From Candidatus Jordarchaeales archaeon (GTDB lineage Archaea; Asgardarchaeota; Jordiarchaeia; Jordiarchaeales; Freyrarchaeaceae): a stretch of DNA of 32,000 nt. A program made the translations under genes and the position numbers. The notes below the pieces were generated by a model that had not been told where the DNA came from, ran no database searches, and saw only the letters and a list, made by a program, of their open reading frames with translations. This document shows positions 21,589 to 22,181 of the stretch, piece by piece. The DNA lies in contig JAWAHN010000001.1 of the NCBI GenBank assembly GCA_038889235.1, positions 974,499 to 1,006,498 on the forward strand, in the 5' to 3' direction. Every line of letters begins with the position of its first letter. The first letter of the stretch is position 1.

Positions 21589-22181
21589 ATGTCGAAAGAA
21601 CTTATCTACAAAGTAATTCTCGCAGGGGACGGAGACGGGCTGGTGTATTCCTCTAACTGAGACACCAACCCGCCGGAACTGTAGGAAAGACCAGTCTAAT
21701 CTCTCAGTACATTAGTGGAAAATTCCAAGTCGAGTACAAGAAGACTATACATGGGTAGAATTACTACCCGTGGGTTAAAGGCATCGATATATTCTCGAAA
21801 ATACTTAAGGTAGGTGACTCTGCAGTTAAACTAGTAATTTGGGACCTTGGAGGGCAACCTCACTTTAAACATGTCCGAAGTAGTTTCTATCAGGGCGCTA
21901 TGGGCGCCATGCTTGTTTACGACATAACGCGCCGCTCCACGTTCGAAAATTTAGAAAACTGGAGGAAAGAAATGCTGAAAAACACGAAAGAAGAACCAGT
22001 CACTATAGTTATAGGGAACAAAGTTGATCTTGCGCACTTGCGCGAAGTAAGAACAGAGGATGGAAAAAAATATGCCAAAGAGATAAACGCTCCTTTTTTT
22101 GAAACATCCGCAAAGGACGGCAAGAACGTTGAGGCCGCCTTTGAGACGTTAGTCAAAATGATCTTAGAAAGGAAAAAATGA
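21589..22181 (+). CDS. Rab-like small GTPase, split: join(21589..21634, 21679..21748, 21779..22181), 172 aa
   Basis: Joined product MSKELIYKVILAGDGAVGKTSLISQYISGKFQVEYKKTIGIDIFSKILKVGDSAVKLVIWDLGGQPHFKHVRSSFYQGAMGAMLVYDIT...GNKVD...ETSAK...ERKK has G1-G5 and RabF-like motifs. Strong SD before the ATG. Confidence 0.9.
21635..21678 (+). other. Putative 44-nt BHB-type mRNA intron in the P-loop codons
   Basis: Hairpin CGGG/CCCG plus TGGTGT/ACACCA; bulges AG^A and AA^C; central helix ACGG/CCGG. Contains in-frame TGA 21658-21660 and shifts the frame. Confidence 0.85.
21749..21778 (+). other. Putative 30-nt BHB-type mRNA intron in the switch-I codons
   Basis: 9-bp stem CATGGGTAG/CTACCCGTG; central helix GACT/GGTT; bulges AU^A and AA^A. 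Contains in-frame TAG 21756-21758. Confidence 0.85.

Follow-up and report, generated by a model that had tools for sequence, protein, structure and literature searches.

Two predicted tRNA-type introns in a Ras/Rab-family GTPase gene of an Asgard archaeon

How does an archaeon obtain a small GTPase from a gene that is interrupted twice in its DNA? The question is raised by a locus at positions 21,589 to 22,181 of a 32,000-nucleotide stretch of a Candidatus Jordarchaeales genome (assembly GCA_038889235.1, contig JAWAHN010000001.1, positions 974,499 to 1,006,498), which is referred to below as the window; coordinates without a prefix are window positions. A sequence-only reading of this DNA had proposed that a Rab-like GTPase gene is split there by two introns of the type found in archaeal tRNA genes, which are excised at bulge-helix-bulge (BHB) motifs by the splicing endonuclease EndA. 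Our analysis of the locus, its orthologues and the rest of the genome indicates that both inserts are very probably genuine spliced mRNA introns of this type in a functional GTPase gene, a conclusion drawn from DNA and protein sequences. The host had been taken as Asgard-like and this was borne out, its homologues being labelled Jordarchaeales or 'Freyarchaeota'. The gene and its predicted introns are laid out as follows.

21575..21579, forward strand: Shine-Dalgarno-like GGAGG, 9 nt 5' of the start codon, read directly.
21589..21634, forward strand: exon 1, with ATG at 21589; codons 1–15 and base 1 of codon 16 (MSKELIYKVILAGDG + G).
21635..21678, forward strand: predicted intron 1 (44 nt), in phase 1 and within the codons of the P-loop (G1); contains a TGA in the exon-1 frame.
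21679..21748, forward strand: exon 2, 70 nt; finishes codon 16 (Ala), continues with VGKTSLISQYISGKFQVEYKKT and ends with bases 1–2 of Ile39.
21749..21778, forward strand: predicted intron 2, 30 nt, phase 2, one residue past the G2 Thr of switch I; in-frame TAG at 21756–21758.
21779..22181, forward strand: exon 3; begins with base 3 of Ile39, runs through GIDIFSK...ILERKK and ends in a TGA stop at 22179–22181; holds G3, G4 and G5.

Read without splicing, the ATG at 21589 gives MSKELIYKVILAGDGDGLVYSSN and then a stop, so that translation would halt after 23 codons, and the sole listed open reading frame (ORF) is a C-terminal fragment of 93 aa (21900–22181), as the sequence-only reading had noticed. 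Removal of both inserts joins exons 1, 2 and 3 into an intact 172-aa small GTPase of the Ras/Rab family in which the five nucleotide-binding motifs can be read: G1 as GDGAVGKT, G2 as the Thr in YKKTIG, G3 as DLGGQ, G4 as NKVD and G5 as SAK. This protein, with its five motifs and no gaps, had been predicted together with the Shine-Dalgarno-preceded ATG, and both predictions stood: across both junctions no gap is needed to align the joined protein with archaeal orthologues that lack introns or with eukaryotic Rab11/RabA, which were the best eukaryotic matches (44–50% identity). Exon 3 alone matches Pfam Ras (PF00071) with an E-value of 2.7e-39 over profile positions 33–161, and exon 2 alone, only 22 residues, matches positions 10–31 of the same profile. 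The coding pieces had been assigned to three reading frames, which was incorrect; only two are used, as exons 2 and 3 share a frame across the 30 nt of intron 2, which is interrupted by the TAG. 'Rab-like' proved a fair label, but the C-terminus (...MILERKK) has no cysteine and the prenylation motif of bona fide eukaryotic Rabs is therefore missing, hence the predicted protein is Rab-like and not a canonical Rab.

Are the ends of the inserts, then, those that a tRNA-type endonuclease would produce? Structures were taken from minimum-free-energy folds and a register-anchored pair table, and gave the following elements (a caret marks the predicted cut).

21629..21632, forward strand: intron 1 central helix H, exonic 5' strand ACGG; pairs with CCGG at 21673–21676 by three Watson-Crick pairs and an A.G.
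21633..21635, forward strand: intron 1 5' bulge AG^A, predicted cut 21634/35; AGA in five of five lineages.
21636–21646 with 21662–21672, forward strand: intron 1 inner stem h', 4+6 bp.
21677..21679, forward strand: intron 1 3' bulge AA^C, predicted cut 21678/79; AAC or AGC among lineages, the varying base being intronic.
21743..21746, forward strand: intron 2 central helix H, exonic 5' strand GACT; pairs with GGTT at 21773–21776 by two Watson-Crick and two G.U pairs.
21747–21749, forward strand: intron 2 5' bulge AT^A, predicted cut 21748/49.
21750–21758 with 21764–21772, forward strand: intron 2 inner stem, 9 bp.
21777–21779, forward strand: intron 2 3' bulge AA^A, predicted cut 21778/79.

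Both inserts are built alike: their 3' ends pair with the final bases of the preceding exon, and a 3-nt 5' bulge, an inner hairpin and a 3-nt 3' bulge complete the motif. The archaeal splicing endonuclease is said, from an EndA–RNA structure among other work, to cut between the second and third bases of each bulge, and in both introns cuts at this point are exactly the junctions that restore the reading frame. Two 3-nt bulges on opposite strands around a 4-bp central helix are thus present, relaxed at one pair in intron 1. The inner stem h' is strong in both introns; an outer helix h is absent at intron 2, and at intron 1 it consists here of G.U, a mismatch and G.U, with 3 bp in three other lineages. 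The hairpins, stops and cut geometry that had been described at both inserts are all there and the ends fit, but the motifs appear to belong to the relaxed HBh' class and not to the strict hBHBh' class. Group I or II introns, an intein or any other known RNA family were rejected as identities for the inserts (30–55 nt across lineages), no Rfam family reaching the gathering score anywhere in the window.

We compared the syntenic locus in more than ten independent contigs (from NCBI, JGI, ENA and Logan) representing six lineages, in which the order of LysE, GTPase, 2-hydroxyacid dehydrogenase and AsnC-type regulator genes is conserved. Intron 2 is present in six of six lineages, at 30, 30, 30, 30, 31 and 32 nt, and intron 1 in five of six, at 44, 44, 52, 55 and 54 nt. 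The lineage without intron 1 (L016/L002/L022) encodes VILAGDGAVGKTSLI in contiguous DNA, which is identical to the predicted junction peptide AGDGAVGKT, and Freyarchaeia orthologues from the same order (62–65% identity) carry neither intron. Intron lengths vary modulo 3, yet one structural cut rule yields an intact ORF of 171–175 aa in all six lineages. Every orthologous intron with a length divisible by three holds an in-frame stop (the 54-nt intron 1 of L013/L014/L015 at 1396–1449, and the 30-nt intron 2 of four lineages), so that read-through of the unspliced message would never give the full-length protein. The GGAGG is kept 5' of an ATG or TTG start in the other lineages bearing intron 1, and is GGGGG in L016/L002/L022. 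Alignment with related orthologues, which had been suggested as a check, thus agreed with the predicted introns both at the junctions and in the frame. In a maximum-likelihood tree built from the spliced proteins and Freyarchaeia outgroups, the branching did not settle the order of gain and loss of intron 1.

The same comparison bears on the objection that the inserts are errors of assembly or sequencing or insertions of a mobile repeat of the MITE (miniature inverted-repeat transposable element) type. The sole point in its favour is that the source genomes were assembled from metagenomes; the sequence-only reading had itself allowed for assembly artefacts, and these are not what was found, as the same inserts recur in the independent contigs from all four sources. 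In addition, both introns are single-copy in the genome with no repeat family, and the Rfam search of the window returned no match. We consider this explanation almost inconceivable.

Could ribosomes instead cross the inserts on an unspliced message? In translational bypassing of the phage T4 gene 60 type, the ribosome hops from the codon before a hairpin to a matching codon after it, and intron 1 has the outward form of such a site: GGA stands at the take-off position (21631–21633) and again at 21675–21677, with a hairpin and a stop in between, and in three lineages a bypass there would lead to a product identical to that of splicing. For the window and lineage L021, however, it would substitute Thr for the Ala that stands at this place in every intron-less orthologue and every spliced form, and at intron 2 neither Ile nor Thr has a landing codon to match. 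Bypassing would also leave unexplained the invariant 3-nt bulges and central helix, as well as the geometry shared with inserts in cbf5, PCMT, AIR-synthase-family and tRNA genes (see below). We know of no description of translational bypassing in archaea, and regard it as a very improbable account of the locus. Programmed frameshifting was rejected, as a single shift leaves a long insertion in the P-loop and both relevant frames contain stops within intron 1.

If the gene is spliced, selection should have seen its product, and the substitution pattern is informative in this respect. Pairwise dN/dS (the ratio of nonsynonymous to synonymous substitution rates) of the spliced gene was 0.016–0.048, with synonymous sites near saturation. 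Exons 1 and 2, which belong to no sizeable product unless spliced, differ between the window and its closest relative (L017) by 12 synonymous and 0 nonsynonymous changes, and in the other comparisons the proportions of changed sites were 0.02–0.12 for nonsynonymous (pN) against 0.48–0.96 for synonymous (pS) sites. All exons are under strong purifying selection.

These figures speak directly to the idea of a decaying pseudogene, or a recently disrupted gene no longer expressed as a GTPase, which the sequence-only reading had tied to relaxed selection on the exons; the selection that we find is the opposite of relaxed. Decay would fit a frame that is broken twice when unspliced and public gene calls that, in the intron-bearing lineages, are all N-terminally truncated to 93–149 aa and have no P-loop. 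It would also fit three representative genomes of the same genus, which are incomplete and in which no close orthologue of the GTPase was found (best E-values of 1e-27 to 1e-29, probably to paralogues). Decay is at odds, in turn, with inserts that occupy the same positions even between lineages with saturated synonymous sites, that vary in length while excision always restores the frame, and that carry compensatory changes in their stems. A pseudogene is, on this evidence, hardly credible. In those three incomplete genomes the neighbouring 2-hydroxyacid dehydrogenase had no match at E <= 1e-60 either, and the whole syntenic block is kept in genomes of another genus and in several metagenome lineages. 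Among the public calls, one truncated product is still named 'Rab family GTPase', and the first 41 codons of the L016 gene are annotated as a separate mini-gene.

The frame in which selection acts also separates splicing from cleavage without repair, in which EndA would cut the message and the exons would not be rejoined, the motifs acting as sites of endonucleolytic control or decay by which the gene is silenced. Here both cleavage and ligation are deduced from sequence, which leaves room for such a role, and BHB-like sites outside coding regions, for example in the 5' untranslated region (UTR) of Haloferax HVO_1309, have been given proposed regulatory roles (PMC7714728). Selection, on the other hand, holds exons 1, 2 and 3 in one consistent frame that is set by the exact cuts, across different intron lengths, a constraint that only joined and translated exons would explain; the genome also encodes the ligase RtcB. 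Cleavage without religation is for these reasons improbable.

Selection is visible in the RNA structures as well. The central helices and bulges are invariant among lineages, except for the one intronic base in the 3' bulge of intron 1, while the inner stems differ in sequence yet stay paired. In intron 2 the central helix is 100% paired in seven sequences, and 96.7% of the cells of the inner stem are paired versus 25–52% when the partners are slid; in intron 1 the inner stem is 87.1% paired versus 24–54% when slid, and in each inner stem four pairs have changed on both sides. These covariation figures come from five to seven related sequences and are illustrative, outside any formal test, and they agree with the direct comparison of pair tables. 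Over the whole genome, the frequency of a central helix in exact register with an inner stem of 9 bp or more is 1.1e-5 per position/length pair tested, rising to 1.1e-3 when the inner stem need only reach 4 bp. Given this low frequency and the same geometry in independent lineages with different stem sequences, a chance origin of the BHB geometry is unlikely.

Does the host possess the enzymes that splicing would call for? The candidates encoded by the genome are listed below.

C1:1056164-1056754, forward strand: EndA paralogue, 196 aa.
C3:444814-445401, reverse strand: EndA paralogue, 195 aa.
C1:704115-705422: RtcB ligase, match with E 1.6e-180.

The 196-aa EndA is most similar to chain 3P1Z_B of the Aeropyrum pernix enzyme (E 4e-47). 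From the alignment, we take its Tyr, His and Lys to be the catalytic residues and a basic loop to be the Crenarchaea-specific loop, and the 195-aa paralogue has Ala at the position that we take to be that of the catalytic His. The host thus appears to encode a two-subunit EndA of the Crenarchaeota type, assigned as such by sequence, along with RtcB. EndA enzymes that can process relaxed motifs are of the (alpha-beta)2 or epsilon2 type. This set agrees with the statement that Asgard archaea have an (alpha-beta)2 EndA with an L1 loop conferring broad specificity (PMC5829648).

A route from the interrupted gene to a GTPase may therefore be sketched in outline. In each intron the inner hairpin would bring the end of the exon together with the 3' end of the intron as a central helix of 3–4 bp, which has a 3-nt bulge on either side. 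EndA, as an alpha/beta two-subunit enzyme with a loop of Crenarchaeota type, would cut at 21634/35, 21678/79, 21748/49 and 21778/79, RtcB would join the exons, and the spliced mRNA would be translated into a GTPase of 172 aa whose P-loop and switch I are both intact. The original proposal of a multi-intron, endonuclease-spliced mRNA has held at every point that sequences can address, namely frame-restoring cuts, an intron-1-less allele, selection, covariation and the presence of EndA and RtcB, and from these we infer splicing at the RNA level.

Several observations weigh on the other side. Both motifs fall short of the strict hBHBh': the central helix of intron 1 includes an A.G and its outer helix is poor in this genome, while intron 2 lacks an outer helix altogether. 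The z-scores of the folds are modest (-2.1 and -3.2). A search of 5.8 billion proteins returned no full-length protein of the spliced type at >=80% identity, and degenerate patterns for the spliced junctions 1 and 2 had no match in JGI metagenome contigs; as transcript data are scarce for these uncultured archaea, the absence of spliced forms among proteins and DNA is a weak negative. Finally, we scanned both strands of the genome for the geometry of central helix, bulges and inner stem (534,378 loose matches) and filtered for ORF restoration and a hexamer coding score; exact cuts could not be distinguished from cuts displaced by 1 nt and there was no statistical excess, a small one appearing only at the most stringent settings (38 exact versus 17–29 displaced). 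Such a scan cannot count introns, because ordinary gene boundaries swamp the signal.

Is the GTPase gene alone in its genome? The scan recovered its intron 2 along with candidates that were then checked against Pfam, and the inserts in other protein-coding genes were the following.

C1:553441-553471: insert of 31 nt in an AIR-synthase-family gene; PF00586 (AIRS) profile positions 2–48, then 49–100.
C1:804315-804345, reverse strand: insert of 31 nt in a PCMT gene; PF01135 profile positions 2–59, then 61–208.
C3:304889-304915: insert of 27 nt in an FAD-binding oxidase gene; PF01565 (FAD_binding_4) profile positions 1–80, then 93–139.
C2:145890-145918: probable insert of 29 nt in leuD.
C1:565583-565612, reverse strand: probable insert of 30 nt in a Fer4/CCG iron-sulfur protein gene.
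C1:835887-835915: insert of 29 nt in cbf5, with helix CACU/GGUG, bulges AG^A and AA^A and a G/C-rich inner stem.

All six inserts share the geometry of the GTPase introns, and in the first three genes the profile stretches matched by the two halves abut. In cbf5 the rule-based cut joins CTAG to ATCC, by which the Asp codon of the GTLDPKVTG motif is recreated. This gene is the classic crenarchaeal host of an mRNA BHB intron, and the insert lies here in an Asgard archaeon. Two further stringent scan hits (C1:43071-43112 and C1:222751-222794) were discarded, as they resembled ordinary gene boundaries. We consider the chances evenly balanced that mRNA splicing by EndA and RtcB is pervasive and obligatory in Jordarchaeia, extending to dozens of protein genes, among them multi-intron and eukaryotic-signature ones.

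The tRNA genes of the genome were also examined. Neither ARAGORN nor Rfam detected a tRNA in the unedited window, and ARAGORN's calls over the whole genome came to only 14 tRNAs, the majority of them with non-canonical introns. When BHB candidates were removed by brute force at the tRNA loci of the window and ARAGORN was run on the results, many alternative solutions arose, of which only a tRNA-Leu(CAA) was partly supported: removing two inserts of BHB geometry (22 and 24 nt, at 16692-16713 and 16764-16787, forward strand) led to this call, the product being still ~93 nt long with a third small intron likely. In intron mode over the whole genome, ARAGORN called a tRNA-Gln(CTG) with a long odd intron at about 14091-14217 of the window (reverse strand), and removal of a 29-nt BHB candidate with a 10-bp inner stem (14148-14176) likewise gave a tRNA-Gln call.

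Against known systems, the closest likeness is to the cbf5 pre-mRNA intron of Crenarchaeota (Watanabe 2002; Yoshinari 2006; Yokobori 2009, PMC2738675), which is likewise short, lies in coding sequence and often has a relaxed BHB, in hosts that likewise have a hetero-oligomeric EndA of broad specificity, and which has been gained or lost between related lineages. As of 2020, cbf5 of Crenarchaeota was given as the only reported case of a BHB intron in a coding sequence (PMC7714728), other protein-coding BHB introns having only been predicted (PMC2738675), and our literature search returned no report of protein-coding BHB introns in Asgard archaea. The present gene differs from cbf5, and from the known cases in general, in having two introns, an Asgard host, a eukaryotic-signature product of the Ras/Rab family and the company of other genes in its genome that are split too; the splicing of crenarchaeal cbf5 has been shown experimentally, whereas that of the GTPase is predicted from its sequence. 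In Haloferax volcanii, the BHB intron in the 5' UTR of HVO_1309 likewise involves an mRNA and the tRNA splicing endonuclease, and the circular intron was detected there (PMC7714728), but it is located in the untranslated leader, and no reading frame depends on its removal, in contrast to the GTPase introns.

The lineage itself is known for extreme loads of tRNA introns (PMC11291895; bioRxiv 10.64898/2026.10.13.758758). The non-canonical, multi-intron tRNA genes of Jordarchaeia, Freyarchaeia and Atabeyarchaeia covered there, together with those of Thermoproteales, show the same geometry of a 4-bp helix and 3-nt bulges, introns of similar size, more than one intron in a gene and a history of recurrent gain and loss, and share their lineage with the GTPase gene; the passages that a term search returned from the two papers make no mention of protein-coding introns. 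Unlike a tRNA, an mRNA substrate needs base-exact splicing to hold its frame, before or in competition with translation. In eukaryotes, the splicing of XBP1/HAC1 mRNA by IRE1 and RtcB is likewise independent of the spliceosome, with a protein endonuclease acting at stem-loops, subsequent ligation (by RtcB in metazoa) and a change of frame. That system, however, uses a different endonuclease family and recognition motif in a single, stress-regulated event, and no relatedness of the introns is implied.

What would this arrangement mean for the organism? A single Asgard gene would need two splicing events, placed in the codons of its two key nucleotide-binding motifs. The placing of the introns in the G1 and G2 codons may reflect a gating of active GTPase production by splicing, and their positions may echo those of eukaryotic introns, both being speculative extensions of the analysis. 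If splicing holds true at the RNA level, current annotations would systematically truncate or miss genes in these genomes, and a lineage close to the origin of eukaryotes would routinely tolerate interrupted protein genes without a spliceosome, which raises the question of how cells in which translation is coupled to transcription prevent ribosomes from engaging messages that are still unspliced. Should such splicing prove pervasive, a close prokaryotic relative of eukaryotes would already have split protein genes and would have to coordinate their splicing with translation.

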